A stretch of 64,000 nucleotides of DNA from a virus (IMGVR_UViG_3300035498_000371:64001-128000), one strand, 5' to 3'. Positions 9,479 to 63,775 are shown, numbered from the stretch's first letter. Translations and numbers: made by a program. Notes: generated from the letters alone by a model not told the origin.

Positions 9479-10309
9479 TTACATTTTGAATGCATAATCC
9501 ATAATGATATTATTTACATGCTTCTCAAGATTTACTGTAATCTTATCGCCGTATCTTGAAGTCATAAGAAGAGTGTTCTCGTTAAGCAATGTAACAGAAT
9601 CATAGATACCATCAAAAGTTTCTACAATCTTAGTTACATTTGCAGATTCTCTCTGAAGCCTATTAATTACATCCATAGCTGCGCCTTCAGTAATCTTGAT
9701 GATAGTACCAGGATCATTTTCAGGAACAACGATGCTATTCTCTGATAATACTTTGCCATCAAGAGCAGCCTCAGATACAATCCTATCTGTGTATGCAACT
9801 TTATGTGAAGGATAAATAACACTATCCCATGTAATAATCTTAATACCCTTAACATAAGCTTTACCGTTTACATTTTCGATAGTACCAAGAGCTCTTAATG
9901 AGAATGCAGGTAAGCAACCTTCTCTAAGATCCTGATCGAAGTACTCTCCATAGTTATTATTCGTTCCCTTAAACTGAGCTTTAACCAGATTACCCTCTGT
10001 CCATACTTTTAAGAATCTAACGCATACTAATTTAGGATCTATCGTTTGCTGACGAACCAAATCATCAGATAACGGATGTCCGTACTCGCCACAGAACTGT
10101 TTAGCGTTTATAAGCTCTTTCATTCTATCGCCATTAATCTCTGGTTCAAGATCTGCTTTAGCATAAATACGTCTGTTTCTGTTTTCTTTATCCATATCCT
10201 GAAGCGTTCCTTCAGCTATAACACGTTTAGTGGAACCATCTGTAATTATGGTATCCTCAACGGTTGTAGCGCCTTCAAGAATGATGTTTCCAATCACCTT
10301 ATTAGACAT
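9479..10309 (-). CDS. Prohead core protein protease (T4 gp21/phiKZ gp175-like)
   Basis: NRNRRIY, GEYGHP (catalytic His), FSLRALG (catalytic Ser), ITWDSVIYPS; start moved to ATG 10309 behind AAGGAGG SD. Confidence 0.9.
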   Translation of the reverse strand: MSNKVIGNIILEGATTVEDTIITDGSTKRVIAEGTLQDMDKENRNRRIYAKADLEPEINGDRMKELINAKQFCGEYGHPLSDDLVRQQTIDPKLVCVRFLKVWTEGNLVKAQFKGTNNNYGEYFDQDLREGCLPAFSLRALGTIENVNGKAYVKGIKIITWDSVIYPSHKVAYTDRIVSEAALDGKVLSENSIVVPENDPGTIIKITEGAAMDVINRLQRESANVTKIVETFDGIYDSVTLLNENTLLMTSRYGDKITVNLEKHVNNIIMDYAFKM

Positions 10310-36836: not shown

Positions 36837-38048
36837 ATGATTGAATTGGAAGGTAAATATAATTCATGTAAAGTATTTACAGATGATTGCGATACTGCTA
36901 CGATAGGGCAGTTAACAGCATTATTAGATCAAGAAAGTTCTAAAGGAAGTAAGATAAGAATTATGCCAGATTGCCATGCTGGTAAAGGTTCTGTAATTGG
37001 AACAACTATGACGCTCGATAAGTATGTAATACCAAATATCGTTGGAGTAGATATAGGTTGCGGTATGCTCGCTGTTAAACTAAAGAACAAATCAATAGAT
37101 TTACCAGCATTGGATAGTGTAATCCATAAATATGTGCCAAGCGGTTTTGATATTCATGATGAACCAATTGGAGATTCTGATATTGATCAAATATATGCTC
37201 CAGTAAATACAGATAGGGCATATAGAAGTTTAGGAACTCTTGGAGGAGGTAATCATTTTATTGAGGTTGATAAAGACTCTGAAGGATTCTTATGGCTAGT
37301 TATTCATACAGGTTCACGCCATTTAGGTATAGAAGTATGTGATTATTATCAGAATCTTGCATATGAAAATCTCAAAGCTAAGGCTGCAGGTGGAACTTAT
37401 AAAGAGTTATCTGATAAGTTAATAGCTCAGTACAAATCTGAAGGAAGAGAGAAAGAACTCTCTAAAGCATTAGCTGGACTGAAATCAGAATACAAATCTA
37501 ATATAGATATTCCTCAGGCTCTTGCTTATCTTGAAGGTGATAGCATGGAAGCTTACATTCATGATATGAAGTTAGCTCAGGAGCACGCAAGTATTAACCG
37601 TGCTATTATTGCTAAGACTATATTGAAGAAGGCTAAGCTTAAAGAAATTGAACGTTTTGAAACTATTCATAATTATATTGATTGTAATAATATGATTCTT
37701 CGTAAAGGTTCAATATCAGCTCAGGATGAAGAAAGAGTGATAATACCAATGAATATGAGAGATGGTTCTCTTATATGTATAGGTAAAGGAAATCCTGATT
37801 GGAATTATTCGGCGCCTCATGGAGCCGGTAGATTAATGTCTCGTAATGCTGCAAGAGATTCTATTTCAATGAGCGACTTCAAAGAGAGTATGAAAGGCAT
37901 TTATTCTACAAGTGTTAATAAGAGCACAATCGATGAAAGTCCTCAGGCTTATAAACCAATGGATGAAATTATTTCCAATATGGGAGACGCGGTAGAGATT
38001 GTTGATATTATAAAACCAATCTATAACTTTAAGGCTGGAGAAGAATAG
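36837..38048 (+). CDS. rtcB: RtcB-family RNA ligase
   Basis: MPDCHAGKG, GVDIGCGM, GTLGGGNHFIE, HTGSR, HNY, RKG, HGAGR, DESPQAYK. Confidence 0.95.
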   Translation: MIELEGKYNSCKVFTDDCDTATIGQLTALLDQESSKGSKIRIMPDCHAGKGSVIGTTMTLDKYVIPNIVGVDIGCGMLAVKLKNKSIDLPALDSVIHKYVPSGFDIHDEPIGDSDIDQIYAPVNTDRAYRSLGTLGGGNHFIEVDKDSEGFLWLVIHTGSRHLGIEVCDYYQNLAYENLKAKAAGGTYKELSDKLIAQYKSEGREKELSKALAGLKSEYKSNIDIPQALAYLEGDSMEAYIHDMKLAQEHASINRAIIAKTILKKAKLKEIERFETIHNYIDCNNMILRKGSISAQDEERVIIPMNMRDGSLICIGKGNPDWNYSAPHGAGRLMSRNAARDSISMSDFKESMKGIYSTSVNKSTIDESPQAYKPMDEIISNMGDAVEIVDIIKPIYNFKAGEE

Positions 38049-38062
38049 AGAAGGAGGTTAGT

Positions 38063-38659
38063 ATGATAGTTCAAATAAGTTCAGGTCAAGGGCCTGCAGA
38101 ATGCGAACTCGCTGTAGTAAAGTTATATAATGCTTTATCAAAAGAGTTCAATGATTTATCTTTAGTACAAAAACATGAAGCCCGCACCAAAGGTTGCTGC
38201 ACTTCAATATTGTTTACTACAGATAATGATCTTTCATTTCTTGAAGGAACGGTTCAATGGATTTGTCAAAGTCCATTTAAACCGCACCACAAACGCAAGA
38301 ATTGGTACGTTGACGTTAGCATAATACCGCAAATGGAAGAAATCTCAACAGAGCAAGATATCCGCTTTGAAAGATTTCACTGTGGCGGCAATGGAGGTCA
38401 AAACGTTAATAAAGTAGAAACAGGAGTAAGACTTACTCATATTCCAACAGGAATTGTAGTAACGTCTACTTCAGAGAGAAGTCAATTACAAAACCGTAAA
38501 GATGCATTAAACAAATTAAATGCAATATTAGCAGCTAAGGCTGTTGATAATAAAGCTAAGCAAACAAATGATGCTTGGAGAGAACACACTAAAATAGTTC
38601 GTGGAAATCCAGTAAGGGTTTACAAAGGCGAAGAATTTAAACTAATGGAGGTAAAGTAA
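38063..38659 (+). CDS. prfH: Peptide chain release factor H-like protein (PrfH)
   Basis: ISSGQGPAEC N-terminus, GTVQWICQSP..HHKRKNW, GGNGGQNVNKVETGVR, ERSQLQN; adjacent to rtcB. Confidence 0.88.
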   Translation: MIVQISSGQGPAECELAVVKLYNALSKEFNDLSLVQKHEARTKGCCTSILFTTDNDLSFLEGTVQWICQSPFKPHHKRKNWYVDVSIIPQMEEISTEQDIRFERFHCGGNGGQNVNKVETGVRLTHIPTGIVVTSTSERSQLQNRKDALNKLNAILAAKAVDNKAKQTNDAWREHTKIVRGNPVRVYKGEEFKLMEVK

Positions 38660-39040
38660 ATGAATACTCAAATGTGTACTGTTTGTAATAAGGAAACTAA
38701 TATAGTTTATACATATCCATCTAATGATGGATCTCGCTTAGTTACAATATGCTCTAATTGCGGAGCAGAGATTGAAGCTACAGAAGAGGTAGAACTCAAT
38801 GAAGAGCAAGCAGATAGAGTAGATGAAGTTTATAATGCAGTTTATGATATGTGTAAGATATTAACAGAGAATGATAATTTAGAGTGGAATATGGCATATT
38901 TAGGTGAAATAGCAGAGTTTGCTTGTAATACTCTATTAACCACTGGAGCTACAGATAAGATTAGATTTCCAGCTGTGGTTGAAGCAGACAATTATGGTTC
39001 TCAGTGTATTGAGGAATATTATACGGCAGAGCAGAATTAA
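38660..39040 (+). CDS. Zn-ribbon hypothetical protein
   Basis: CTVC...CSNCG. Confidence 0.7.
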   Translation: MNTQMCTVCNKETNIVYTYPSNDGSRLVTICSNCGAEIEATEEVELNEEQADRVDEVYNAVYDMCKILTENDNLEWNMAYLGEIAEFACNTLLTTGATDKIRFPAVVEADNYGSQCIEEYYTAEQN

Positions 39041-39093
39041 AGCAAAAGAATATCGGGAAGCCCATAATGGCTTCCCGATTATCTACAGTATTT

Positions 39094-39396
39094 TTATTTT
39101 TTGATTGTTATACATAATAAATCTCCATTAAGGTATATCTCTGGTGTGAATCTCTTGTTGTAAATTACCAGTGAGCCACACTCGGAACGTAGTCTTTCTA
39201 CAAGTTTTTCTTTGTTTTCATTTCCAAGTGTAACCGAGTATATAATGGAGGCTTTATCGAATGTAATGCTGTTTAGAGATATAAAGTTTACACCTCTAAG
39301 CATATCATATACCAGCATATGTTGTTCAAAGTAATCCTTGAATATTGAAGCTATTTGATCTGCTGGTATATCTTTCACAAAATCAACTGTATTCAT
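39094..39396 (-). CDS. Hypothetical protein
   Basis: GAGGAGG SD; last gene of minus-strand late operon. Confidence 0.7.
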   Translation of the reverse strand: MNTVDFVKDIPADQIASIFKDYFEQHMLVYDMLRGVNFISLNSITFDKASIIYSVTLGNENKEKLVERLRSECGSLVIYNKRFTPEIYLNGDLLCITIKK

Positions 39397-39570
39397 TTAT
39401 ACCATCGCCTCCTCTAGCTCATCTTCTAATACTTCTCCTTCACGACGCTCTTGACCCTCTTTGGTTTTCTCGCGTTGCTCAGCTATTAAGTAGAGTTGAT
39501 TTATATAGGATAGAGGAAGATGCATCATATCTAAGAATGATGACCTTCCTCTATAGTAAGTACAAAGCAT
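39397..39570 (-). CDS. 57-aa ORF missing from ORF track (MLCTYYRGRSSFLDMMHLPLSYINQLY...), tail-chaperone 'T'-like segment
   Basis: Fills the gap between two minus-strand genes; its stop abuts the next ATG; frame is open upstream to 39627. Confidence 0.65.
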   Translation of the reverse strand: MLCTYYRGRSSFLDMMHLPLSYINQLYLIAEQREKTKEGQERREGEVLEDELEEAMV

Positions 39571-39581
39571 TTCTATCTTTC

Positions 39582-41282
39582 CTATAAACTCTTGACCTGG
39601 GCCAACTGAGCTCGTGTAAAAAGCAAATTAAGTACAGAATCGATAGGTTGCTCAGGAATCTCACCGCCACACTCAGTACATGTAGCAACAGGATATACAT
39701 AAGTAACCTTAGGATCTTCTATAATATTTGCAAGTTTACCGACAAGAATATTGTACTGGTCAGTTGTAAGCGTCTTAAGAATCTGTACATAAGCTTTAAG
39801 CTTAGAGAGTACGGTTTTGTTAATATTATTAGGATATTCTTTAACTGCCATAGGAATAAGCTGTTTAGATTCTCTATCGATCTTATAGAAACCTTCAACG
39901 TAAGCCATGGTATTAAGAATATCAGAATGCTTCTCTGTTATATCAGGTCTTAATGTAGAGAACTGAATAAATGTACTATACAATGTTGCCGGTCTGAATG
40001 TAAGTACATAGTCATCAGAAATCTGTAAAGGAGTAGCCTGAATAGTACTTGCAGGTGTAGTAGAATCCATTGTTCTGATATTATCGCACTCTGATTTAAC
40101 ATCGTCATTATCGTACTTAACCATTGAGTAGATATCTGTATCGATAAGAGATGTTTTCTTACAAGAATCAATCTCATGAGTTCTTGCAATAAGGTTAGAA
40201 TCAGAGTAGCAAGATAAATACTGACCGAAATACAGAGACTCAATATCCTCTGTTCTGATCATTTTAGTCCATGCTTCGAATGTAGGTTTGTTTGCATCAA
40301 CAATGTGATTGTAAACAAATCTTAATGAAGCAATTACGCCATTAACGCCATTACTGTTACGAATGGTCTTACGAAGTGCATCAAGCTCTGGTCCATCACA
40401 CTCCTCGAATGTAACATTTCTCTTGCTATAATACAGAGGCCAATCTGCTCTCTTCTTATTAGAAACAGGAGCATTCTCAAGAATGCGGCTAGCAGAAATT
40501 GGTTTCTGACTGATCTTATATTCAGCAAAGTTAATAGGATTCTTTGTAGCAACAATAGAACCCATATTAGCCTTGAATTTCTCACGAAGCTCTTCAGGAG
40601 TTTCCTCCTCATCATCTGTAACGTCGTATTCGCTATCAGAGTTGTCGATCTCATTTAAAAGATCATCAAACTCGCTAAGGTCTGAATCATTATCCTTCTT
40701 GGGAGCCGGTTTCTTAACAACAGGCTTCTGCTGTTTAGGCTGCTCTACTGGAGCTTCCATTTTTGGTGCATCTGGAACACTCATTACTGCTCTCTCTGTT
40801 TCATGCTTTTCTTCTGCTGTCTGCTCTTCAGAATCTTCATCAGCAAGATCCTTATCAATCTCATTCTCGATATCATCAAGATTTGAGAAATCATTCTTCT
40901 GTACAGACTGCCGAACTTCTTCATCAGCGCCTGCATCTTTCTCCATCTGCTCTTCTTCTACTGCGTTTGCTACAGCCTCTACCATAGCATCTGCGTTTTT
41001 CTTTTTCTGCTCAATTACAGCATCCATAGATGAGAACGCGTCTCCAACAATTTCAGGAGTAATGCCATCTTCTCTCTGAGCTTTAGCCTGAGCCTGCTCT
41101 GGATGTGCTGCCTCGATATCTCTATTTAATTCAGCCATAGAGATTGGCTTCATTCCTCCGCCATTTGCGTTTGCTGTTGTTGGTCTCTGAGGTGGTGCCG
41201 ATACTACCGGTGTAGAGTTGTTTTTGGTCGTTGTTTTGGACACATTTCTACTTAATTCGTCCAAGGTCATTTCTTTAGCCAT
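39582..41282 (-). CDS. Putative baseplate-hub/tail assembly chaperone with disordered acidic N-terminus
   Basis: C-terminal CTECG...NLLF as in T4 gp26/gp51-type assembly factors; follows gp25-like gene; inference. Confidence 0.55.
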   Translation of the reverse strand: MAKEMTLDELSRNVSKTTTKNNSTPVVSAPPQRPTTANANGGGMKPISMAELNRDIEAAHPEQAQAKAQREDGITPEIVGDAFSSMDAVIEQKKKNADAMVEAVANAVEEEQMEKDAGADEEVRQSVQKNDFSNLDDIENEIDKDLADEDSEEQTAEEKHETERAVMSVPDAPKMEAPVEQPKQQKPVVKKPAPKKDNDSDLSEFDDLLNEIDNSDSEYDVTDDEEETPEELREKFKANMGSIVATKNPINFAEYKISQKPISASRILENAPVSNKKRADWPLYYSKRNVTFEECDGPELDALRKTIRNSNGVNGVIASLRFVYNHIVDANKPTFEAWTKMIRTEDIESLYFGQYLSCYSDSNLIARTHEIDSCKKTSLIDTDIYSMVKYDNDDVKSECDNIRTMDSTTPASTIQATPLQISDDYVLTFRPATLYSTFIQFSTLRPDITEKHSDILNTMAYVEGFYKIDRESKQLIPMAVKEYPNNINKTVLSKLKAYVQILKTLTTDQYNILVGKLANIIEDPKVTYVYPVATCTECGGEIPEQPIDSVLNLLFTRAQLAQVKSL

Positions 41283-41295
41283 AATTTAATTCCTC

Positions 41296-41685
41296 CTAAT
41301 TTAATAATTGGTCTAAGATATAAGTTGCTCCTGCACTCATATTATCATTATCTTGATCATACTCTAGGGTATAAGCTCCATCACCAGTGTTTATAATGAT
41401 TCCAAGAGAATGATTCTTCAATACGCCTACAGTGATATCTATAGGCTCTAATTCTGGCAAAAAATGTTCAATCTGATATTTAATATCAGATTTCAGATCT
41501 TGAAGCATATTCTCATCATTATTGTAACGGTATTTGGATCTTATTCCAACTCCCATAGTTGGATGAGATTGGAATTTGCCTGGTTCTAGATAGATTATAT
41601 ATATAATATGAATGTAAGCAGCATCAGAACTTTCAAATACCTTTGGCATTTTGAAAGCATTTTCAGATAATACATGAGCTTGCAT
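41296..41685 (-). CDS. Baseplate wedge gp25-like protein
   Basis: LEPGKFQSHPTMGVGI...IKYQIEHFLP; SD AAGGAGGT; late motif at 41706-41717. Confidence 0.65.
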   Translation of the reverse strand: MQAHVLSENAFKMPKVFESSDAAYIHIIYIIYLEPGKFQSHPTMGVGIRSKYRYNNDENMLQDLKSDIKYQIEHFLPELEPIDITVGVLKNHSLGIIINTGDGAYTLEYDQDNDNMSAGATYILDQLLN

Positions 41686-41824
41686 GATTATACCTCCTTC
41701 ATCATTATTTAAAAGTTGTAGTAGTAAAAATTTACATGAAGGCAAATTGCGATTAAATCATATATTATAAAAATGATCATAATTTAGAATCAGAACAAAA
41801 ATTAAATTAAGGAGGTATAAAATT

Positions 41825-42439
41825 ATGATATTTAATTACATTACAGAGGAAGCTAAATTTATAACAGAGCAGGAAATACTTGATTGTATTTCTGAAGAAA
41901 GTGACGATGGCGCTATAGTTATCAATTCAATAATTATTGATGAAAAGCTAGTACTTGAAACTGTAAATTCTGGCGAAGTAAATATGCCAGTAAAGCGCAA
42001 TAATAGTAGGGTAATAATGATAGGTAATCAGACAGATCAACATGGTCCTAGAATGAAAGTATCTGCTTATGCTGGTAAAATTAGTAAAAGATCTAGCGAC
42101 GAAGATGACGGCAAGGGCTATATTAGTATATTTATGAGAAAGGAGCATGGTAAAGATGGTCTGCCTGTATTAGATCATAAGGGAAATATTAAAGATATCG
42201 ATATGAAGCAATCAGAGCTAAAATTATATTATGATTTCTTTGTTGATAATTATAATTTAATTAGGCTAGCGCGTGATAACGATAATAGTACGCTTTGTGA
42301 TAAAGCTCTAGTTAAAGATGCCAAATTACGTAAAGACGGAGTTAAGATTGAACGAGGCCGAAATGGAGATTTATATGTGTATGATAAGAATGGCAATATA
42401 GATTATAAAGAAAATTTGAAAGGTGAAGAAATATCATGA
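41825..42439 (+). CDS. Hypothetical protein with N-terminal repeated [IV]xE motifs and HGPRMKV motif
   Basis: ITEE, ITEQ, ISEE, IDEK, VLET; strong SD. Confidence 0.7.
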   Translation: MIFNYITEEAKFITEQEILDCISEESDDGAIVINSIIIDEKLVLETVNSGEVNMPVKRNNSRVIMIGNQTDQHGPRMKVSAYAGKISKRSSDEDDGKGYISIFMRKEHGKDGLPVLDHKGNIKDIDMKQSELKLYYDFFVDNYNLIRLARDNDNSTLCDKALVKDAKLRKDGVKIERGRNGDLYVYDKNGNIDYKENLKGEEIS

Positions 42440-42870
42440 TGATATATCAAATAAAATTAGAGTGCTTAAGTAAACATGATAGTTTTGTAACTACTCATTC
42501 ACCAATGTTATTGCCAAATAGCATGATAGAAATGAGAAATAATATGCAATACCCTACAAAAGAAGCATTTGATTATGCTATAGGGGATTATATTAATGCA
42601 AAAGATGATATAATAAAAGCGGCAAAAAATGAAAATTGGAAAATGAGATTTCTTCCCAGAAATAAAATGCACGCTTTTATGCTGCTATATTTATTTTCCG
42701 AAGATAAAAATGGTAAAGTTCTAGTATATTATTACGATTACGATACAAAAACAATGCTTGAACTTTATACAATAAATACCGATTGGTTTACAAGTCCTAC
42801 TAAAGATGCTGAAGACTACCCATGCCTAAGTTATTTATTGGAGTCTGTTTACGGTATAAAAATTAAATAA
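42436..42870 (+). CDS. Hypothetical protein
   Basis: ATGA overlap with previous gene. Confidence 0.7.
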   Translation: MMIYQIKLECLSKHDSFVTTHSPMLLPNSMIEMRNNMQYPTKEAFDYAIGDYINAKDDIIKAAKNENWKMRFLPRNKMHAFMLLYLFSEDKNGKVLVYYYDYDTKTMLELYTINTDWFTSPTKDAEDYPCLSYLLESVYGIKIK

Positions 42871-42966
42871 AAAGAATAGAGCATGGTTATTATAACCATG
42901 CTCTTACTATATTTATTTTTGCCCAAGACATCAAAGTAATTTATTAATAAAGGAGGTAGTTCGAAT

Positions 42967-45900
42967 ATGTCTACTAAGAAATATAAATGCCCATATTGCA
43001 ATGCTAGATTAGAGAGATCGGCATTAATTAAGCATGTAGATAAATTCCATCAGGAGTTAATTCCTGATGGGTTTACCTCAACTAGAATTGTTTATAATTC
43101 AGTTAATAAGACTGATGGTGGCAAATGTAGAGTATGTGGTAAACCTACAGAGTGGAGAGAAGATACCGGTAGATATAACGTTCTTTGTAAAGATCCAAAA
43201 TGCAAGCAGAAGATGAGGGATGATTATAAAAAGAATATGCTTCGTGTTAGAGGTACTTATAATATTCTTAATGATCCAGAGCAACAGGAAAAGATGCTTG
43301 CTAATAGATCCATCTCAGGAGAATATCAATTCTCAGATGGTGGTAAGGTAGGTTATACGGGAACTTACGAAAAGAAATGCTTAGAGTTCATGGATGTTGT
43401 TATGCAGATTAAATCAGACGATATTATGTCTCCAGGACCATCCATGGAATACACTTATAATGGCGCTAAGCATATTTATATTCCAGACTTCTATTATGTA
43501 CCATATAATTTAATTATCGAAGTTAAGGATGGTGGAGATAATCCTAATACTAAATTATCTCCAGGAATGAAGTCTTCAAGAGAACGTACTATAGAGAAAG
43601 AGCGTATGATTACTGATAAAGGAATCTATAATTATATCAGGTTAACCAATAACAACTTTCAGCAATTAATAGAAGTATTTATGGATATTAAATATGCTCT
43701 TATTGAAGGTGATCCTAGAAAGACTGTTAAGGTTAATGAATCATCAGATATTGATTTTTTTGAAGAATATGAATCTTTATCTGAGAATGGAATTATTACC
43801 ACTAAAGATTTGGAATATAATTTAGATCAATGGAAAATTGGTGGTAAGAATATTCTATTTATTACAGGCTTATCTGGTTCTGGTAAATCTACTAAGGCTG
43901 CTAAGTTGGCTAAAGAGAATAATGCTATTAATATAGAGATTGATCTCTTTGAGCATAACGATATTGTATTCGATAAGAATACAAATAATGATGATGGTAA
44001 TATTATTGTAAAAGAATACTTTGAAAAGAAATATGGGGGTGCTAGAAAGATGCCTCAGGGCGATCCTAAGTTGCCGCATATGCTTTATGATTTCATTAAA
44101 TATTGTATAAATTATGCTTCAAAGCATAAGGATCGTTTATTCATCATGGAAGGCATTCAGTTAGCAGATTTAGAGATGGCAGAAGAGCTTAAGAATTATC
44201 CTGTTATTATAGTAAATACCAGTATTATAAAATCAATGTATAGGGCAGCTAAGCGTGAAGGTATTAAGGATTATTTTAATTCTTTTAAATCATTCTCTGA
44301 TTTCTTAGGTTGGTTCAAATGGTATTTGCAGATGGATAAAAACAATAAGAAGTTTGCTAAAGATTTGAAAGAATCTACGTTTAATGAATCAACAACTCTT
44401 AAGAACTGTAAAAGATTAAATAATTATGGCGGTAATTTATATTTTATATCTCAAGAAGAATTAAACGGGAAAATATTATCTCCAAGAATACCGGATAATT
44501 ATTTTACAAAAAATAATTATGAAGATAACACTATCAAAAGAGTATGCTTTGCTCCATCTATAGATAAATGCTTAATGGGTTTATCTCAGAATCTTAAAGG
44601 AGAAGAACTTTATGTATATGAACCAGATGGGGAATATGAAATTTACAAACCAGATAAAAATCTTGTTCCCGATTCATCAATAACAGGAGAGTTATGGATA
44701 TTGAAACCTGTTAAATTGAAGAAGCTTGCCAAGATCAAAGTAATAGGTGATGCTGGAGAAGATGGAATACCTTTCTATTATGGCGATAATAAAGCTGAGT
44801 TATATAAATGGAATTATAAAATAATAGATGAATCTACGATTCCTGAAAAATGTAAGAAGTGCGGAGGAGATATCAAGGTTTATCTTAGAGGAGAACCAGT
44901 ATATCTTTGCTCCGATTGCGGGGAATATTATGGCACGGTTCCATTTAAAGAAGACGCTATATTAAAGTCTAAGAATGAACCGTTCTTTTTCTATCATCTA
45001 TTACCAAAAGGCGCTAGCATAACTAATGGTATTACAAGTTTGGAATATCAATATAATCATAATATGAATGATTTCCTGAAGAACTCCAATAAATACAGAA
45101 CCAGATTATGCGGCGGTTGGAATATTTACCCTGGCAGAAATCCAAACTCTTTATCTTCTGAAGAAATACATGAGGGTATAAATCAATTCAGGCATTCAAA
45201 TGGTGGTTGTAATAGAATTTATTTATTCAGATATGCCCCATATGAAAATCTTGGTTCTCAAATGAAGAAAATATTGGCGGGCAAAGATATTTATAGAGTT
45301 GATGTGAGTAAGCTTTTAAAAGATGGTATAATAATCGATATTGATTATGGTTATATAGATTCTAATACAGATAATGATAAATTAAGCGAGGATTGGTATA
45401 GAAATATATCCTATGATGATTATTTCAAAAACTACACAGAAGATAATCCTGATCGCCTGTTATTCAGTTATATGAACCATATAAGCGTTACTCCTAAGAA
45501 TGGGGTTATTCCTAAGAAATATTTAACGAAAATTGATAAGTCTAATTCATTATCTTTACAAGAAACTGATACTATATTAGAGCAATCAAACCCAGATAAT
45601 CTTGTTTTTATTGATATTAATAGAGACAAGAACACTACAGTTAAATATCTTAAGCAGAGGAATAGCAAGTATACAAATTATCTTGATAATTACATTGGAG
45701 AAATCATTGTAGATCAGGATAAAGATAAGCTTGCAGGCCAAGTATTTATTGGTAAGAAAGGAACGAAGGATGAAGGTTTCATTACAGGATTAGAAGTCTA
45801 TAAGCCTTATAAGAATAAAGGTTTAGGAAGTAAGTTGTTAGATGATGCTGTTAAGAAATATAATGGTATTGATCTTACAGTTTATAAGGATAATGATATA

Positions 45901-46257
45901 GCTATAAGAATGTATAAGAAATATGGATTCGTTATATTAGGTCCTGGAAATACCAAGAATAATGATTATTACATGAAGCTTAAGAGTAAGGTTTCTAAAT
46001 CAGACAAGAAATCAATCAAAGAATCTTCTGGAATGACTGCGGATCAGGTAGATAGATTTTATACCCTATTAAAGCAAAGATTAGACGAAGATGAGGAATT
46101 TGAGAAGTATGAATCTGCATTAACGCCATATAACAAAGATACAGATGGACCAAATGAGTTTCCTAAAGAAAAGTCTAACTTTAGTGCAGATGATCTTAGT
46201 AATACAGAGATCGATGATTTAAGTTTTGATGATTTAGACGACGATGAAGAGGACTAA
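42967..46257 (+). CDS. Polyvalent multidomain protein: C2H2/Zn finger, PD-(D/E)xK nuclease-like, P-loop kinase, two ART-like/unknown modules, Zn ribbon, GNAT acetyltransferase, acidic tail
   Basis: CPYC...H...H; YIPDF..NLIIEVKD; ITGLSGSGKST; RVCFAPSIDKCL; CKKC..CSDC; LEVYKPYKNKGLGSKLL...NDIAIRMYKKYGF; late motif GACA-TCAAAG-TA at 42927. Confidence 0.8.
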   Translation: MSTKKYKCPYCNARLERSALIKHVDKFHQELIPDGFTSTRIVYNSVNKTDGGKCRVCGKPTEWREDTGRYNVLCKDPKCKQKMRDDYKKNMLRVRGTYNILNDPEQQEKMLANRSISGEYQFSDGGKVGYTGTYEKKCLEFMDVVMQIKSDDIMSPGPSMEYTYNGAKHIYIPDFYYVPYNLIIEVKDGGDNPNTKLSPGMKSSRERTIEKERMITDKGIYNYIRLTNNNFQQLIEVFMDIKYALIEGDPRKTVKVNESSDIDFFEEYESLSENGIITTKDLEYNLDQWKIGGKNILFITGLSGSGKSTKAAKLAKENNAINIEIDLFEHNDIVFDKNTNNDDGNIIVKEYFEKKYGGARKMPQGDPKLPHMLYDFIKYCINYASKHKDRLFIMEGIQLADLEMAEELKNYPVIIVNTSIIKSMYRAAKREGIKDYFNSFKSFSDFLGWFKWYLQMDKNNKKFAKDLKESTFNESTTLKNCKRLNNYGGNLYFISQEELNGKILSPRIPDNYFTKNNYEDNTIKRVCFAPSIDKCLMGLSQNLKGEELYVYEPDGEYEIYKPDKNLVPDSSITGELWILKPVKLKKLAKIKVIGDAGEDGIPFYYGDNKAELYKWNYKIIDESTIPEKCKKCGGDIKVYLRGEPVYLCSDCGEYYGTVPFKEDAILKSKNEPFFFYHLLPKGASITNGITSLEYQYNHNMNDFLKNSNKYRTRLCGGWNIYPGRNPNSLSSEEIHEGINQFRHSNGGCNRIYLFRYAPYENLGSQMKKILAGKDIYRVDVSKLLKDGIIIDIDYGYIDSNTDNDKLSEDWYRNISYDDYFKNYTEDNPDRLLFSYMNHISVTPKNGVIPKKYLTKIDKSNSLSLQETDTILEQSNPDNLVFIDINRDKNTTVKYLKQRNSKYTNYLDNYIGEIIVDQDKDKLAGQVFIGKKGTKDEGFITGLEVYKPYKNKGLGSKLLDDAVKKYNGIDLTVYKDNDIAIRMYKKYGFVILGPGNTKNNDYYMKLKSKVSKSDKKSIKESSGMTADQVDRFYTLLKQRLDEDEEFEKYESALTPYNKDTDGPNEFPKEKSNFSADDLSNTEIDDLSFDDLDDDEED

Positions 46258-46360
46258 ATTAACGGGCAGGATTATACCTGCCCGTCATCCTTTTATTTTT
46301 TAGTAATATAATATAGATTTGAGTAGTAGTATTAAAATATAATTTATGGAGGTGATTAAT

Positions 46361-46792
46361 ATGAACAGACGTTTAATTAAGCAGAAAGTTATCGAGGCAA
46401 TCAATCTTAGAGACGATCTTATTCAAGAGATGAAGAATTGTGGAATTCGTTCTGATTTTTCTGATAAGCCGTATCATAATGCCATTCGAGGACAGATAGC
46501 TGAGAATGCAGCGTTAGTTATCGAATACTATTACGGGCTACCAGCAAAAATATATACTCCTATAGGATATATATCAATCACAGGTGGTTATCACAGAGAA
46601 ACTATTCCTGGAGGATACGACAAAATTACCAAAATACTTGAAGAAAAATATGGATTTAAACTTGCACGCCCGGCAGAAAAATCAACTATAGGCGAGCTTG
46701 GTCCATGGTATTCTAAAGATGGAACTATGGTAATGGCTGAAGAGGAATTAGACAGCGATACCGCTAGGGAAATATTTGCATCATTAACTTAA
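46361..46792 (+). CDS. Hypothetical early protein
   Basis: TATAATATA promoter motif, GGAGGTG SD, terminator. Confidence 0.7.
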   Translation: MNRRLIKQKVIEAINLRDDLIQEMKNCGIRSDFSDKPYHNAIRGQIAENAALVIEYYYGLPAKIYTPIGYISITGGYHRETIPGGYDKITKILEEKYGFKLARPAEKSTIGELGPWYSKDGTMVMAEEELDSDTAREIFASLT

Positions 46793-46852
46793 TACTTATG
46801 GGAAGCCTATATAGGCTTCCCTACAATTTTTGAAAATGGAGGTTAAAGAATT

Positions 46853-47548
46853 ATGTTTTTACCAATTAATGTTTTAGAAGATCCAATGAAATTAGTAGAT
46901 ATGTTTTGCAATAAGCAAGTGTTTAGAATACGAGTTTATGATATTCCAAATAATACAATTATAGACTACGCAAATGCTCAGCCAATGCACACTCCGTATA
47001 TACGTACAGCGCGAATATTTGAAGATAAACCTTCAACAGCAAAACTCAGCGTAGATTATAAGAGCGATATAAATAAATATATTCGTGATTGTTATAGTGC
47101 TGTAAGTTTGTTAGATATGGCTGTACAGATTATGTTTGAGTATAATGAACCTGTAGTAGAAAAAAGACGATTATATGCTGATGATAATATAAAAGCGCCG
47201 GATACGGGTAAACTAAGCACCGCATATTATCAAGATCTTTTTAGAAAGAGAACCGAAATACTTGGTTGCGTAAGATACACATGGAGGGATATAGTCAAAA
47301 TCAACGGTAAGGTATATTGTGAAGAATTTCCAATATCAGGTAAGAAAGATGCTGAAGATATTTATCAGATAGATGATTTCATCGAAGCAGTTGCTAAAAA
47401 GCATGGAGTTGATACAGATGATGTAGAAACTCTTACAATGAATAATAATCTTGATATCGGAGATATAAAAGATTTAGAATACGGGATAGAAAAATGCGGA
47501 TGCTATATTAATGGTATAGCGGAATGGTTGCTTCCTGTAAAAATGTAA
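46853..47548 (+). CDS. Hypothetical protein
   Basis: GGAGG SD. Confidence 0.7.
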   Translation: MFLPINVLEDPMKLVDMFCNKQVFRIRVYDIPNNTIIDYANAQPMHTPYIRTARIFEDKPSTAKLSVDYKSDINKYIRDCYSAVSLLDMAVQIMFEYNEPVVEKRRLYADDNIKAPDTGKLSTAYYQDLFRKRTEILGCVRYTWRDIVKINGKVYCEEFPISGKKDAEDIYQIDDFIEAVAKKHGVDTDDVETLTMNNNLDIGDIKDLEYGIEKCGCYINGIAEWLLPVKM

Positions 47549-59498: not shown

Positions 59499-62288
59499 AT
59501 GGCTTTAGAAGATTTTAAGAACAATAACTCTCCATCAGATAAGAGAAAGTTGTTGGTTAGAATAGCAACTAATGTACTAAATATATATGGAATAGAGTAT
59601 AATATTGCCAGTGGAGATAGAGAAGACTTCATAGATGGTAAAGAGAATAAAAACTTTAATTCCATTTGTCTTTGCTTTAGTCTTGGTAAGAACGTTGGTA
59701 AGGCTTGTAAAGTGGTTAATAGAGAAATTAAGCAGTATGGTGGAAAGTTTAAGCATGATGAGCACGGTATTGGAATTCTCTATCTTAAAGATGATATCGG
59801 GGCAAATGAATTAGATCTACCAGATGTACAAGATGATATTCATTATATATTGGATAATACTCCTGATGATAGAATCTTTCTTACAACTGACTGGCATATC
59901 TTTGGTCATTACTACGGTAAAGGTAGAAATCCTGTCAATATACAGGAAATTGTTTCATGGTGTAAGAAGAATATTAAAGATGAAGATGTTCTTATAAACT
60001 GTGGAGATTTGACTCATAGATATGCTAATAAAGAGCATCAAGAAGAAGCAGCAAAGATTTATAGAAGTCTTCCTGGGATAAAAGTTCTTATTCTTGGTAA
60101 TCATGATATTGCTACCGGGGAAGATTTCTACACTAATTGCGGATTTGATTTTATATTCAAAAGATTGGTTCATAACGGCATAGTTTATAGCCATAGACCA
60201 GAGAATATCGAAGCCGATCCAGAATTATGGTTTAATATTCATGGGCATAAACACGATGTTCAGACTTATAACGTTACTAGTGGAGAAAATAGTGTAAACG
60301 TTTACCCAGCATTCTTCAATAATAAACCAACAACGCTGGATTATGTATTAAATCATAGAGATAAATTGACTAAAGATAACGTACAGGATTTCTGGTCTAA
60401 TTATACAGAGAGTGCATTAAATGAAACGAAGAGATCTGAACTTCCAGATTCTTCATTTGGTATTCCTGAAGATCGAAAGTTTCCATTAGATACAGAGCAG
60501 CATGTAAAATCTGCAATAAAATTATTTGGTCATGCTGAAGAATCCAAGAAGAAACAACTTGCACAAAGAATATCTACAGCCGCAAAAAGATATAATGTAA
60601 AGATCTCTGATACATGCCAGATTAATAAGTACTTAACAGAATCTGTTGAGCATATTATTCCTAAAGATATTGATACTCTTATCTTTGATATGGGTAAAGT
60701 ATTGGTTGGAGATACGACTAAAGATATGCTTACAGCATCTGATATGATTCCTAATGATGAAGTTGAAGGAATTTATAAATCTGTCGGTAAAATTCTCTTC
60801 ACAGATGAATCAGAGAATATGACTAAAGATGAAGCCATGCAGGAGTTCTACAATAAAGCTCCAGAGAAGTATAAGAAATATACTTCTACAATATTCCAGT
60901 GTATTGCTAATGGATTGAAGATTTATTCTTATACTTACGAGCTTCTTGATAAGCTTAAAGGAATGGGTTATAGAATCTATTACTTATCAAACTGGGAAAG
61001 ATGGACTTATGAGATAGAAGAAGATATATTTAAACCATTGCTTGATAAGTTCGATGGAGGATTATTCTCATTTTCTGAAGGCTGTAAAAAACCAGATGCA
61101 GAATTCTATATAAGATTGCTTGATAAGTATTCTTTACAAGCAGAGAGATGCGCTTTCTTTGATGATAAAGCAGAAAATCTTGCTGGAGCAGAATCTGTTG
61201 GTATAAAAGCCGTTCCATTTAATTATGAGAATACTTATAAGATGCTGGTAAGCGATATATCTGTAACTACAGAAGCTGCAGATGTGGCTTACGATAAGAA
61301 CACCATTCTTATCAATAAAGATAATGAATTAACTACGGTGGATATTAAGAATATTCCTCATTGGCACGTATGTGAATCAAGATACCCTGGAGAGATGAAT
61401 GAAGATTGTTATTATAAATCTCTTATTGAAGCAATAGAGAATTGCGGAATAATGGATAATATAGAAGATTCTAAACAAGCTTATGTGTTCATATGCAATG
61501 GTTTAAGACAGGATTGCGATGATTGTTTTCATCCAGTATGTGTTGGTATCATTAACGTAGATTCTAATAAACAATATGAATGGGTTATTCAGTATCCTGT
61601 AACGGTTGAGGGTGGTGTATACAAGAACGTTGTTTCTGCATCTGAATGGGCTATGGCTTCGATGAATCCTATAAAGCCAATTGCTAAACCATTCATATTA
61701 AAAATATCTCCTCAAGATGAGACTATAAGAACCAAGCAGTATTTATTCTCCCCAGATGTAATTGCTGATAAATATTTAGCAATATCTGAAGATGGTAAAT
61801 TATCTGTATTAAATCATAAAGACGTTGAGAATTTATATATTGAAGCCGAGTATAGATTCGTCGGTGATTCTCGTAGAATTAATAAGATTCGTGAGGCTTT
61901 AAAGAGTGGTAAGATTGTAGATAATACATTCTTCTATACTGCTCTTACTGGAAAACCATTACTTACAGAGGATCAGATTGATTTTGATTCTAATTTTGTT
62001 AAGATCGACTTCAGCAGAATGAGGAACAATATCTTATCCAATCTTGCTACAAATGAGTCTAAGTTTAATACTCTAATTGACAGTAATACTAATGGAGTAC
62101 TAATTACTGAAGGTTACAAATATGGATCTCTTAATGATAAATATGGGTTAAGGATTATGTATTCATTGGAAGGTTATTATGTAGAATCTTCTGTTCTTGG
62201 ATATAAGAGCCCATATTTTAATTCTGTTGATGAGATAACAATAGAAGTTGTAGAAACAATGCTAAATAAGAAACTGGAGGTGATGTAA
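59499..62288 (+). CDS. Polyvalent multidomain protein: calcineurin-like metallophosphoesterase, small LPDSSFG module, HAD phosphatase, C-terminal unknown domain
   Basis: TDWH, GD, GNHD, SH, HGHKH; RSELPDSSFGIPEDRKFPL; FDMGKVL, LSN, KKPD, FFDDKAEN; late motif GACA-ATAAAA-TA (59464-59475). Confidence 0.85.
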   Translation: MALEDFKNNNSPSDKRKLLVRIATNVLNIYGIEYNIASGDREDFIDGKENKNFNSICLCFSLGKNVGKACKVVNREIKQYGGKFKHDEHGIGILYLKDDIGANELDLPDVQDDIHYILDNTPDDRIFLTTDWHIFGHYYGKGRNPVNIQEIVSWCKKNIKDEDVLINCGDLTHRYANKEHQEEAAKIYRSLPGIKVLILGNHDIATGEDFYTNCGFDFIFKRLVHNGIVYSHRPENIEADPELWFNIHGHKHDVQTYNVTSGENSVNVYPAFFNNKPTTLDYVLNHRDKLTKDNVQDFWSNYTESALNETKRSELPDSSFGIPEDRKFPLDTEQHVKSAIKLFGHAEESKKKQLAQRISTAAKRYNVKISDTCQINKYLTESVEHIIPKDIDTLIFDMGKVLVGDTTKDMLTASDMIPNDEVEGIYKSVGKILFTDESENMTKDEAMQEFYNKAPEKYKKYTSTIFQCIANGLKIYSYTYELLDKLKGMGYRIYYLSNWERWTYEIEEDIFKPLLDKFDGGLFSFSEGCKKPDAEFYIRLLDKYSLQAERCAFFDDKAENLAGAESVGIKAVPFNYENTYKMLVSDISVTTEAADVAYDKNTILINKDNELTTVDIKNIPHWHVCESRYPGEMNEDCYYKSLIEAIENCGIMDNIEDSKQAYVFICNGLRQDCDDCFHPVCVGIINVDSNKQYEWVIQYPVTVEGGVYKNVVSASEWAMASMNPIKPIAKPFILKISPQDETIRTKQYLFSPDVIADKYLAISEDGKLSVLNHKDVENLYIEAEYRFVGDSRRINKIREALKSGKIVDNTFFYTALTGKPLLTEDQIDFDSNFVKIDFSRMRNNILSNLATNESKFNTLIDSNTNGVLITEGYKYGSLNDKYGLRIMYSLEGYYVESSVLGYKSPYFNSVDEITIEVVETMLNKKLEVM

Positions 62289-63775
62289 TGGATAAGAATA
62301 TTCAAGCAATGATAGAATCATTTAAAGAGTCTAATCCATCATCTTCTAAAGATATTAAATTTGTATTTGAAGGATATATTTGCCCTTACTTTACAATGGA
62401 TGAAGTTGCTCAACTTGAGGGCTATTATTCTGATAATGTAAACAAAGAGTATAGAGCTCTATATGAGCATATCGCTTGTCATGATACAAACTTTGGTAAA
62501 TCATGGGCTTCTAAAGTTGTAGAATTACAGAATCAGCTTAAAGTTGTTACAGAGCCAGAGCATATTGATCAGATTAAGCAGGAGCTTATAGATCTTGGTT
62601 GGAATCCTGAAATTGAGTATACTGCGGAGAATCAGATTAAAGCCAAGAAGAGATATGAAAATATATTAAACGAGAGGTACAATAGGTTTAATATTGTGGA
62701 TTGTACTAATATAAATATTTCTGATGTATTGGAAGAATCAAATGAATATGGAATTCTATATCCAATACATATTGTCTTGGTTAAAGGAGATCATCTTATA
62801 TCCAACGTTATTACTAAAGTAACAAATGGGGATTTCTCTCATTCTGGTTTGGCGTTGGATAATGATCTTAATAAGATTTACAGCTTTAACTTTGATAACA
62901 AATTCAATACTGGCGGTGGATTCTCTTTAGAGTCTATAAAAGAATATCCTAAAAATAATAGGCTTGCTGTTTACACAGTATTCGTTACTAAGCAGGCTTA
63001 CGACAAGGTATCAGAAAATCTTCAAAACTTCATGAATAATATAAAGAAGACTGGATATTCTATAGTAAATCTTGTTACGTTTCCATTTAAGAATATCAAG
63101 ATCAATATGAGTGACAATATGATTTGCTCTCAGTTTGTTGATTATATTCTTAATATAGCAAACGTTAATATAACAAAGGATGATGCTTCTAAGGTTTCTC
63201 CTAACGGATTATACTTTGCTATAAAATCAAATCCTAAAGCATATAAAGTCTTTGACGGTGAAGTAAAAGACTTTGATGCTAAGAAAATAAATAAGACTGT
63301 TAAGAAGATTTCTAAAACAGCTTCCCCAGCTAACGAAATACAGCAGTTGGAGCAAGCAATATTTGAAGCCAGAAAGATTCCAGTCGAAATTAATGCAGAT
63401 GGTGACGTATTACTCACAAATCCGTTTCCTGACTACTCTGCTGAATATTTCGCTTCTCATAAATTACTGCTTAATTATGAGAAGACTGGAAATATTGAAG
63501 GGATGAAATACGAGCTTGCTAGGCTCTATTATATGAATTATATTATAGAGAAGAAATTATATCATAATAAGAATCTTAAGAATAAGCAGGAGAACATCAA
63601 GACCAGAGCTAGAATTCTTAATGATTTCAATAAATATCTTAAATACGTTCTTTCTAAGGATAAGAATTTTAATTTCTCTGAGTATTATGAGGGTTCACCT
63701 TTCTATGCCCATACAATAGAAATTAAATCATCAACCATAGGCAAGATCAAAGATATTATAAGTTATATATTATAA
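62288..63775 (+). CDS. Putative virion protein with internal permuted NlpC/P60 (YiiX-like) domain
   Basis: GDFSHSGLAL (His before Cys), GYS, MICSQFV. Confidence 0.75.
   Translation: MDKNIQAMIESFKESNPSSSKDIKFVFEGYICPYFTMDEVAQLEGYYSDNVNKEYRALYEHIACHDTNFGKSWASKVVELQNQLKVVTEPEHIDQIKQELIDLGWNPEIEYTAENQIKAKKRYENILNERYNRFNIVDCTNINISDVLEESNEYGILYPIHIVLVKGDHLISNVITKVTNGDFSHSGLALDNDLNKIYSFNFDNKFNTGGGFSLESIKEYPKNNRLAVYTVFVTKQAYDKVSENLQNFMNNIKKTGYSIVNLVTFPFKNIKINMSDNMICSQFVDYILNIANVNITKDDASKVSPNGLYFAIKSNPKAYKVFDGEVKDFDAKKINKTVKKISKTASPANEIQQLEQAIFEARKIPVEINADGDVLLTNPFPDYSAEYFASHKLLLNYEKTGNIEGMKYELARLYYMNYIIEKKLYHNKNLKNKQENIKTRARILNDFNKYLKYVLSKDKNFNFSEYYEGSPFYAHTIEIKSSTIGKIKDIISYIL

Follow-up and report, generated by a model that had tools for sequence, protein, structure and literature searches.

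The stretch of DNA analysed here (the window, 64,000 nucleotides) comprises bases 64001-128000 of a single 238,843-bp contig of an uncultured jumbo phage, IMGVR_UViG_3300035498_000371, with a G+C content of 31-39%. The source phage shows a distant kinship to the AR9/PBS1, Staphylococcus and phiR1-37 jumbo phages, and the window encodes a major capsid protein (MCP), a prohead protease and an RNA-polymerase beta-like subunit. This study concerns the open reading frame (ORF) at 42967..46257 on the plus strand, whose stop-free translation of 1096 amino acids (aa), here P0001, is a chain of seven modules: a nuclease, a P-loop module, a module termed R, a zinc (Zn) ribbon, a module termed U, a GNAT and an acidic tail. 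Polyvalent proteins are recognised by several disparate domains in one chain and by a variable architecture among relatives; both are found here, and the polyvalent, modular nature of P0001 is close to certain. No match to the gene was returned by blastn against 50,697 phage records, and no paralog of any of its modules was found elsewhere in the genome. Module limits were set without the motif described below, from BLAST endpoints to shuffled homologs and from one DNA cassette breakpoint.

The chain is led by module N (42967..43740, aa 1-258; this and all following modules and junctions lie on the plus strand), which combines a C2H2-like Zn finger, a second Cys4 ribbon and a PD-(D/E)xK nuclease core, and which matches PHROG 15137, 'endonuclease', with an E value of 1e-42. 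The PD ... (D/E)xK motif is present and conserved (P173-D174 ... E185-V-K187), and residues C8, C11, H23, H28, C54, C57, C74, C79, D174, E185 and K187 are invariant or nearly so among 43-45 homologs. Module N is 35-38% identical to AR9 g233 and to the Staphylococcus jumbo-phage 'endonuclease fused to N-terminal Zn finger', and 30% identical to phiR1-37 g237, over ~235 aa; unlike P0001, these homologs stand alone, at 236-243 aa, and carry neither cargo nor junction sites. Module K (43741..44373, aa 259-469) is a P-loop NTPase with the Walker A sequence GLSGSGKST, probably of the small-molecule or nucleotide kinase class. Its matches to the Pfam families AAA_22, AAA_18, AAA_33 and APS_kinase and to NCBIfam kinases are weak, and a profile search of the PDB aligned it with shikimate, APS, adenylate and nicotinamide-riboside kinases in the Walker A region only.

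Modules R and U were folded as single modules (R as residues 474-628, U as residues 664-872), each from an alignment of homologous fragments; a MAFFT alignment of P0001 with 122 homolog fragments was left unused, as fragments were misplaced in it (8-18% identity vs 50-60% by BLAST). The AlphaFold2 model of R (44389..44832, aa 475-622; the 'RVCFAPS' module) has a predicted local distance difference test (pLDDT) score of 92, and the top rows of a VIA-wide fold search, which is independent of Foldseek, are almost all ADP-ribosyltransferase (ART) folds: TreX (Z 6.3), Tpt1 (5.6) and Scabin (5.4), with further matches to Arr (5.4), PltA (5.1), CARDS (5.0) and pertussis S1 (5.0). The best Foldseek match of R, in weak agreement, is Arr (E 0.04), and R52, S67 and E102, conserved in the module's alignment, are candidate catalytic residues. 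The model of U (44953..45564, aa 663-866) has a pLDDT of 92.7 and resembles DarT, with VIA-wide Z values of 7.0, 6.8, 6.6 and 6.1 over 148-158 residues followed by Tpt1 and OspC3/CopC; its best Foldseek match is DarT1 (E 0.014), and its conserved H14, Y47, R50 and H175 are again candidate catalytic residues. Searches with R and U sequence profiles against PDB sequences gave no matches. For both modules, which the sequence-only reading of this DNA had pointed out without naming a fold, the Z values are moderate and support a description as ART-like folds, not as proven enzymes.

Between R and U lies module Z (44833..44952, aa 623-662), a 40-aa CxxC...CxxC zinc ribbon and a mobile mini-module: it recurs at varied places in homologs, often C-terminally, and has counterparts of 47-55% identity (over 36-51 aa) in Lak megaphages. 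Module G (45583..46023, aa 873-1019) is a predicted GNAT acetyltransferase, matching Pfam Acetyltransf_1 over residues 909-988 at 39.9 bits against a cut-off of 20.7 (E 5.7e-10) and a RimI-like NCBIfam model (E 2e-9). The chain closes with an acidic tail (46024..46257 including the stop codon, aa 1020-1096), in which 17 of the last 40 residues are Asp or Glu. No peptidase module was found in P0001 by Pfam and PHROG searches; any protease that cuts the chain would therefore act in trans.

A conserved motif at the module boundaries

The junctions of P0001 were set independently of the motif, from BLAST endpoint peaks at residues 265, 473, 623 and 1016 and from the two edges of a DNA cassette. 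In what follows, h is a hydrophobic residue at P3 and a slash marks the predicted cut, which would follow a Glu at P1. Junction 1 (43732..43791, aa 256-275) reads VNE/SS ... FFEE ... LSE/NG, with VNESS at 256 and LSENG at 271; junction 2 (44365..44394, aa 467-476) is doubled, LKE/ST FNE/ST, at the endpoint peak at 473; junction 3 (44824..44838, aa 620-624) is IDE/ST, at the peak at 623. Junction 4 (44944..44958, aa 660-664), FKE/DA, and junction 5 (45556..45588, aa 864-874), LQE/TD T ILE/QS, form the left and right edges of the exchanged cassette, and junction 6 (46015..46029, aa 1017-1021) is IKE/SS, at the peak at 1016. These are the six strings that the sequence-only reading had quoted, all of them found in the translation where it had placed them, and its claim of an [ILVF]-x-E at every junction is borne out at 6/6 joints.

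Mere presence of [ILVF]xE near a junction proves nothing, since the motif is common in P0001 (23 sites). Nevertheless, 12 of these 23 sites lie within 10 residues of the six junctions, in windows that together make up 11.5% of the chain (binomial P=2e-6), and the narrower motif [ILVF]xE[ST] falls in the junction windows at 6/6 of its sites (P=2e-6). Control motifs show no enrichment in the same windows, at 1/26 sites for [ILVF]xD and 4/35 for [ILVF]xK. The signal in P0001 lies in the position of the motif, not in its number. Junction residues form the low-pLDDT ends of the otherwise confident R and U models: residues 474-483 of the R model are of low pLDDT and its last block scores 64, and over the last 20 residues of the U model the score drops from 79 to 54.

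The same relation was found across the family, in 83 non-redundant homologs from ~230-270 kb phage contigs with 466 boundaries taken from all-against-all BLAST endpoints. Boundary windows contain 29.7 [ILVFMY]xES per 1000 residues vs 2.3 elsewhere, hNES is enriched 46x, and the motif occurs at 248/466 boundaries vs 50.6 +/- 6.6 at random positions. When the shared junction of module N was removed and the remainder de-duplicated (261 windows), h-x-E-S still stood at 23.3 vs 2.3 per 1000 aa (10x). With Asp, Lys or Gln in place of Glu at P1 the ratio was 0.3-0.9x, [ILVFMY]xDS being at 0.6x. The enrichment at linkers over domain interiors that the sequence-only reading had anticipated is thus 10-13x, with the Asp, Lys and Gln controls at or below 1. 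The phiKZ-type motif [SAG]xE, which that reading had cited as well, stands at 1.0x in the 83 homologs and is set aside in favour of a T4-like motif with Ile, Leu or Val at P3, Asn at P2 and Ser at P1'. This preference is apparent in the boundary logo (P3 I/L/V/Y, P2 Asn favoured, P1 Glu, P1' Ser at 48%) and in an unbiased k-mer scan of the boundaries, which returned 'ES' and 'NE' at the top and VNE, QES, NES, EST and INE among the top tripeptides.

The ends of individual modules conform to the predicted cuts. Module N ends in a near-invariant [IV]-x-[IV]-[NH]-E followed by S, A, N, G or T (~130 sequences), and stand-alone 254-aa versions of it, at loci L012 and L013, finish in ...RINK and the stop codon, their last residue falling precisely at P1. 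In size, solo U proteins (192-216 aa) agree with the product that cleavage would release, and in 49 other long proteins the flanks of U carry h-x-E-[STAGN] upstream in 33/42 and downstream in 34/47 cases, where about 1 in 5 would be expected. The P1' Ser is encoded by TCT, TCA, TCC, AGT and AGC and the Glu by GAA and GAG, in gene-wide proportions. Because synonymous codons vary at the motif, the constraint is on the peptide and not on the DNA, which rules out a DNA-level shuffling or recombination signal at the junctions.

Boundaries marked by the motif are also the places at which modules have been exchanged. Contig L047, which encodes the homolog P0002, matches the window at 94-96% DNA identity over 37367..46968, except for a short break at 42830..42923 just upstream of the gene and for 44968..45591. 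These 624 nt, flanked on both sides by DNA of 95-96% identity, have no similarity to the 771 nt that replace them in L047: DNA identity (95.5%) stops at nt 44967 and resumes at nt 45592, and protein identity between P0001 and P0002 stops 3-5 residues past FKE and resumes at SLSLQE. The swapped stretch is bounded by FKE/ on one side and LQE/ and ILE/ on the other, with breakpoints a few residues from the motifs, so that a single module, U, and no other has given way to an unrelated one between two junction motifs. The replacement (L047:8003-8773, approximately residues 668-915 of P0002) has no Pfam match, and a hydrophobic stretch of ~21 residues, membrane- or signal-like, follows its FKE/S.

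Among 5.8 billion proteins searched, 438 relatives with lengths of 616-1765 aa were recovered, most of them on 230-270 kb contigs, and at the IMG/VR loci the gene product ranges from 254 aa (module N alone) to 1802 aa. In BLAST comparisons with P0001, module N occupies position 1 in 118/120 homologs; K, R, Z, U and G are permuted, duplicated, lost or replaced, so that order, copy number and combination all vary. The commonest cargo module is the GNAT (28/43 homologs), and further modules include NUDIX, metallophosphoesterase, transglutaminase-like/DUF553, papain-fold deamidase (Gln_amidase), Peptidase_S51 and DUF5662. The U module was found both in the solo proteins and in long proteins of up to 2467 aa (1.84 billion representatives searched; 104 representative clusters), most of the long ones without the N nuclease. 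A C-terminus of the P0001 type is not conserved, and the acidic tail is optional, present in a subset of homologs and there again following NES or HES. The sequence-only reading had expected constant termini around exchangeable modules: the architecture is indeed not fixed and the N-terminus is constant, but the C-terminus and acidic tail vary. Its description of the chain as a chassis that accepts new cargo is supported in the evolutionary sense by the exchange of U alone between flanks of 95% identity.

A second polyvalent protein, of 929 aa, is encoded at 59499..62288 (+), with the same promoter-like motif as the P0001 gene at -35. It contains, among other parts, a phosphoesterase (residues 118-302), DUF6582 (313-371) and a HAD hydrolase (391-572), and two of the boundaries between its modules coincide exactly with the strings YTE/SALNE/T (302-311) and LTE/S (379-383). 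Its family, of 514-1590 aa, is variable in content (GNAT, NUDIX, DUF362, P-loop), shows 4.3x enrichment of the motif and shares the U module with the P0001 family (P0149).

Prohead protease, capsid protein and the promoter-like motif

The presumed cutter is encoded in the window at 9479..10309 (-). As the sequence-only reading had held, this is a prohead serine protease, here placed in the T4 gp21 family: it matches Pfam Peptidase_S77 (PF03420) at 43.2 bits against a cut-off of 27 (E 4e-11), with a weaker match to S80 (E 1e-5) and matches to PHROG 207 and 3014. Although the longest ORF extends to 10567, a start at 10309 leaves the gene at 10415 free of overlap and fits the lengths of homologs. 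In an alignment with RB43 gp21 and a PBS1-like homolog, GE-x-x-HP and S-x-R-x-LG, which we take to be the catalytic His and Ser motifs of the family, are invariant, and an N-terminal h-h-h-E leader is kept. From the start at 10309 the protein begins MSNKVIGNIILE/GA, and several h-x-E-[A/N/G/T] sites follow one another in its C-terminal part, among them VSE/A, LSE/N and ITE/G, so that the motif is present towards both ends of the protease, again as had been noted from the sequence. The first ~100 aa of the MCP likewise contain h-x-E-[N/S/A/T] sites that are conserved in the clade, the last of which, VQE/N, stands immediately before the conserved core.

The gp21 protease of T4 cleaves behind the Glu of [I/L]-x-E, and its substrates include the injected ART Alt, cut at ITE-6 and LTE-619; cutting after Glu is common to all studied relatives (PMC5694885). 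The phiKZ and SPN3US proteases also cut in this way and process propeptides at several sites (PMC5694885, PMC10052503). By analogy with T4, and from the sites in the MCP N-terminal region and at the protease's own ends, it is suggested that the protease of this phage would also cut after the Glu of h-x-E.

Two side observations concern the head genes. Between protease and MCP lies an 864-aa ORF of no known family (10415..13009, +), possibly a scaffold or core protein, in which h-x-E-S is more numerous than in any other ORF of the genome (6 sites, 6.9 per 1000 aa vs 1.9 genome-wide); its motif positions are moderately conserved (6-7/10 sequences at the best sites) and were not used as evidence. 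At the MCP loci L028-L031 and L039, tblastn matches to the 616-aa MCP span 2111-2156 nt, and the ORF ends after 616-621 codons.

The P0001 gene appears to form its own transcription unit, as a terminator-like hairpin with a T-run (42878..42904, +), read from the sequence, closes the upstream gene 42436..42870. It is followed by a promoter-like motif, GACATCAAAGTAA (42927..42939, +), 40 nt before the ATG, and by a strong Shine-Dalgarno sequence, AAGGAGG (42950..42956, +), also read from the sequence. The former matches the pattern RACW-N5-RTAA, which was derived post hoc in this analysis and has 107 matches in the genome, of which 51 stand no more than 120 nt upstream of an ORF on the same strand vs 6.1 expected. 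It also occurs upstream of the MCP gene and of the 864-aa ORF adjoining the protease, usually stands 33-42 nt before start codons, and is exemplified in the window at 2499, 10376, 14174, 16191, 42927 and 59464. The pattern resembles the late promoter of AR9, AACA-N6-TA/G (PMC5312081). Of the 'late-type promoter' of the sequence-only reading, the promoter-like motif at -40 stands; 'late' is an analogy to AR9, by which, and only by which, late expression of the gene is plausible.

Proposed processing in the prohead and its alternatives

The explanation that we favour, with moderate confidence, is that P0001 is a late-expressed chain that is packed into the prohead, cut at its joints by the phage's own S77 protease and delivered to the next host as separate products. 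The gene would be expressed late and the chain incorporated into the prohead, where the protease encoded at 9479..10309 (-) would cut after each junction Glu to release about seven products sized like the solo modules; these would leave with the DNA and act on the nucleic acids and proteins of the next host. At the joints, taken to be short exposed linkers, [I/L/V]-x-E is followed mostly by Ser, the recognition type of the T4 gp21 family. The constant Zn-finger/PD-(D/E)xK nuclease leads, with exchangeable cargo modules behind it, and in evolution the motif-bearing linkers serve as the seams for the gain, loss and swap of modules. This is in outline the interpretation offered from the sequence alone, of which linker enrichment, variable architecture and protease family hold and a constant C-terminus does not.

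Several observations weigh against this explanation, the first of which concern the virion. One annotation does favour a place in the virion, that of phiR1-37 g237, the stand-alone homolog of module N, but its GenBank note, 'phage structural protein', names neither head nor tail. The P0001 gene adjoins a gene whose counterpart in AR9 and Staphylococcus phage DC4 is annotated as a baseplate wedge; in both of those phages the wedge gene is the divergent neighbour of the nuclease, and the neighbour in the window, 41296..41745, is equated with it by position, not by homology. A location in the tail would place the protein beyond the reach of a prohead protease. A cleavable N-terminal capsid-targeting leader of the T4 type was not found in P0001, in which the first [ILVF]xE is at residue 183, inside the nuclease fold, and without such a leader entry of the chain into the prohead is unexplained. 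The virion proteome of DC4 does not include the nuclease homolog, but with 15 proteins it is shallow and uninformative. Other points concern the chain itself. P0001 holds 5 h-x-E-S in total (4.6 per 1000 aa), only 2.4x the genome mean of 1.9, and 3/7 BLAST endpoint peaks (497, 907 and 995) are inner edges of conserved cores and free of the motif. The Z values for the ART folds, at 5-7, are all below 8, and with that below the level of a secure fold match. Finally, the same modules head polyvalent proteins without the N nuclease in other phages, and the nuclease is therefore not a universal carrier.

It is possible that the chain, packaged or not, works uncut as a single multi-enzyme protein. 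The h-x-E-S linkers would then be conserved for structure or solubility, or would travel with shuffled modules for reasons unrelated to proteolysis. There is precedent in N4 virion RNA polymerase, ArdC and TraC1, which are delivered uncut (PMC5512222), and linkers in general are rich in Ser, Glu and Asn. Linker composition, however, hardly explains why Glu is enriched at P1 while Asp, Lys and Gln are not, and a hydrophobic P3 is unusual in a flexible linker. Sites frequently occur in pairs, an arrangement familiar from propeptides that are cut more than once (PMC10052503), solo N and U modules have a terminus at a predicted cut position, and the synonymous variation at the motif excludes a seam at the level of DNA. 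An uncut chain is considered rather unlikely.

A second alternative keeps the junctions as cleavage sites and assigns them to another protease or another time, whether a peptidase module of the family, a different phage protease or a Glu-specific protease of the host that would act in the cytoplasm or once the chain has been injected. Iyer et al. proposed processing by embedded peptidases (PMC5512222), and the transglutaminase/DUF553, papain-fold Gln_amidase and Peptidase_S51 modules of some homologs, which must be counted among the points against cutting by the S77 protease, would be in keeping with that proposal; so would the missing capsid-targeting leader and the ClpP/crotonase-like domain of the protein encoded several genes on, at 62288..63775. 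On the other hand, P0001 and most of its homologs are free of peptidases yet keep the motif, and the motif itself, with hydrophobic P3, Glu at P1 and a small P1', is of the type recognised by the gp21 family, a member of which is encoded in the window and whose type of site also marks the N-terminal region of the MCP and the protease's own ends. Cutting by some other protease is distinctly improbable.

It is highly unlikely that P0001 is a non-virion, intracellular cluster of enzymes (of nucleotide or DNA metabolism, for example, in kin of the uracil-DNA phages) fused for co-expression and only fortuitously similar at its joints to protease sites, for, while DC4 has a stand-alone nuclease gene followed by a separate guanylate kinase gene (L046:2309-2869) in the same order as N-K and lacks the nuclease from its shallow list of 15 virion proteins, module K resembles the DC4 kinase at the Walker A loop only, the cargo of ART-like folds, GNATs, NUDIX, phosphoesterases and peptidases is a typical polyvalent effector repertoire (PMC5512222), the phiR1-37 homolog is annotated as structural, and modules that turn over rapidly between phages of 95% identity are in keeping with conflict genes rather than housekeeping ones.

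Beyond P0001, the h-x-E-S linker may be a plug-in rule that holds generally for many jumbo phages, by which any domain placed between two such linkers of a virion-targeted chain would be carried into the prohead, set free there by the head protease and injected. The protease site would then double as the boundary of a cassette, the lead nuclease would be the carrier in this clade, and dsDNA phages would be using a true polyprotein strategy to hold an anti-host arsenal that can be exchanged rapidly. This generalisation is tentative, and we hold it with more doubt than conviction.

Related systems and putative cleavable leaders

The closest concept is that of the polyvalent proteins, which comprise 2-15 disparate domains in variable architectures, are predicted to be delivered with DNA and have been likened to polyproteins (Iyer et al. 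2017, PMC5512222). The P0001 family shares their repertoire of ARTs, GNATs, kinases, nucleases, peptidases and NUDIX; it differs in that their processing was ascribed to embedded zincin-like or other peptidases, whereas P0001 has a site for a trans-acting protease at every joint. In a text search of the main text of PMC5512222 no inter-domain head-protease motif was found; 'prohead protease' occurs in its references only and 'linker' nowhere. What is new here is the conserved site for a trans-acting protease at every joint, together with the coincidence of these sites with evolutionary cassette boundaries.

Alt and the internal proteins IPI-III of T4 resemble the role proposed for P0001 in being head-packaged, injected effectors that an S77 protease cleaves behind [I/L]-x-E (PMC5694885), and Alt is an ART, as modules R and U would be by their predicted folds. 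The internal-protein set of T4 is highly diverse and exchangeable (PMC3012670). The T4 effectors, however, are encoded by one gene each and lose an N-terminal targeting sequence, whereas P0001 has up to seven modules, internal sites and no leader. The inner-body and ejection proteins of phiKZ, 201phi2-1 and SPN3US share with it a related Glu-cutting protease (gp175/gp245, S80), cutting at several sites and a large ejected mass (PMC5694885, PMC10052503); their motif is [S/A/G]-x-E or A-x-E, for which the P0001 family stands at 1.0x. Apart from self-cleavage, all identified cleavages by SPN3US gp245 yield N-terminal propeptides (PMC10052503), which differs from the separation of unrelated enzyme domains proposed for P0001. 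Polyproteins of eukaryotic RNA viruses are similar to the proposal in that one product is cut by a viral protease, at short conserved sites, into proteins of distinct function; P0001 differs in belonging to a double-stranded DNA (dsDNA) phage, in its unrelated protease, in the presumed cutting within the capsid and in supplying accessory effectors, not replication machinery.

If the proposed processing is correct, one late gene would supply the next cell with a set of separate, pre-made enzymes in which single modules are exchanged even among near-identical phages. Such exchange would account for the diversity of the weaponry that jumbo phages bring to their first minutes in the cell, and a polyprotein strategy as in RNA viruses would then also be found in tailed dsDNA phages. 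Each predicted cut can be assigned to a single residue and a presumed protease can be named; hundreds of natural variants show which modules would travel in this manner, two uncharacterised ART-like families among those modules. In metagenomic phage genomes, packaged effectors could be sought by the same sequence rule.

N-terminal h-x-E leaders show no excess genome-wide (24 ORFs vs 25 expected), and individual proteins have arrangements of interest. The 495-aa protein encoded at 62288..63775 (+) starts MDKNIQAMIE/SFKE/S, a doubled site in a short leader like the T4 capsid-targeting sequence, and has LEE/S at 148, just before its ClpP/crotonase-like domain (PHROG 1128, residues 158-323). Outside the window, the ORFs at C1:159686-160882, 160903-161940 and 164538-165995 start MIF/MVF-x-N-N... 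(the slash here separating alternatives), with h-x-E/[G/S] at residues 15-19, and look like paralogous head proteins with a cleavable leader.

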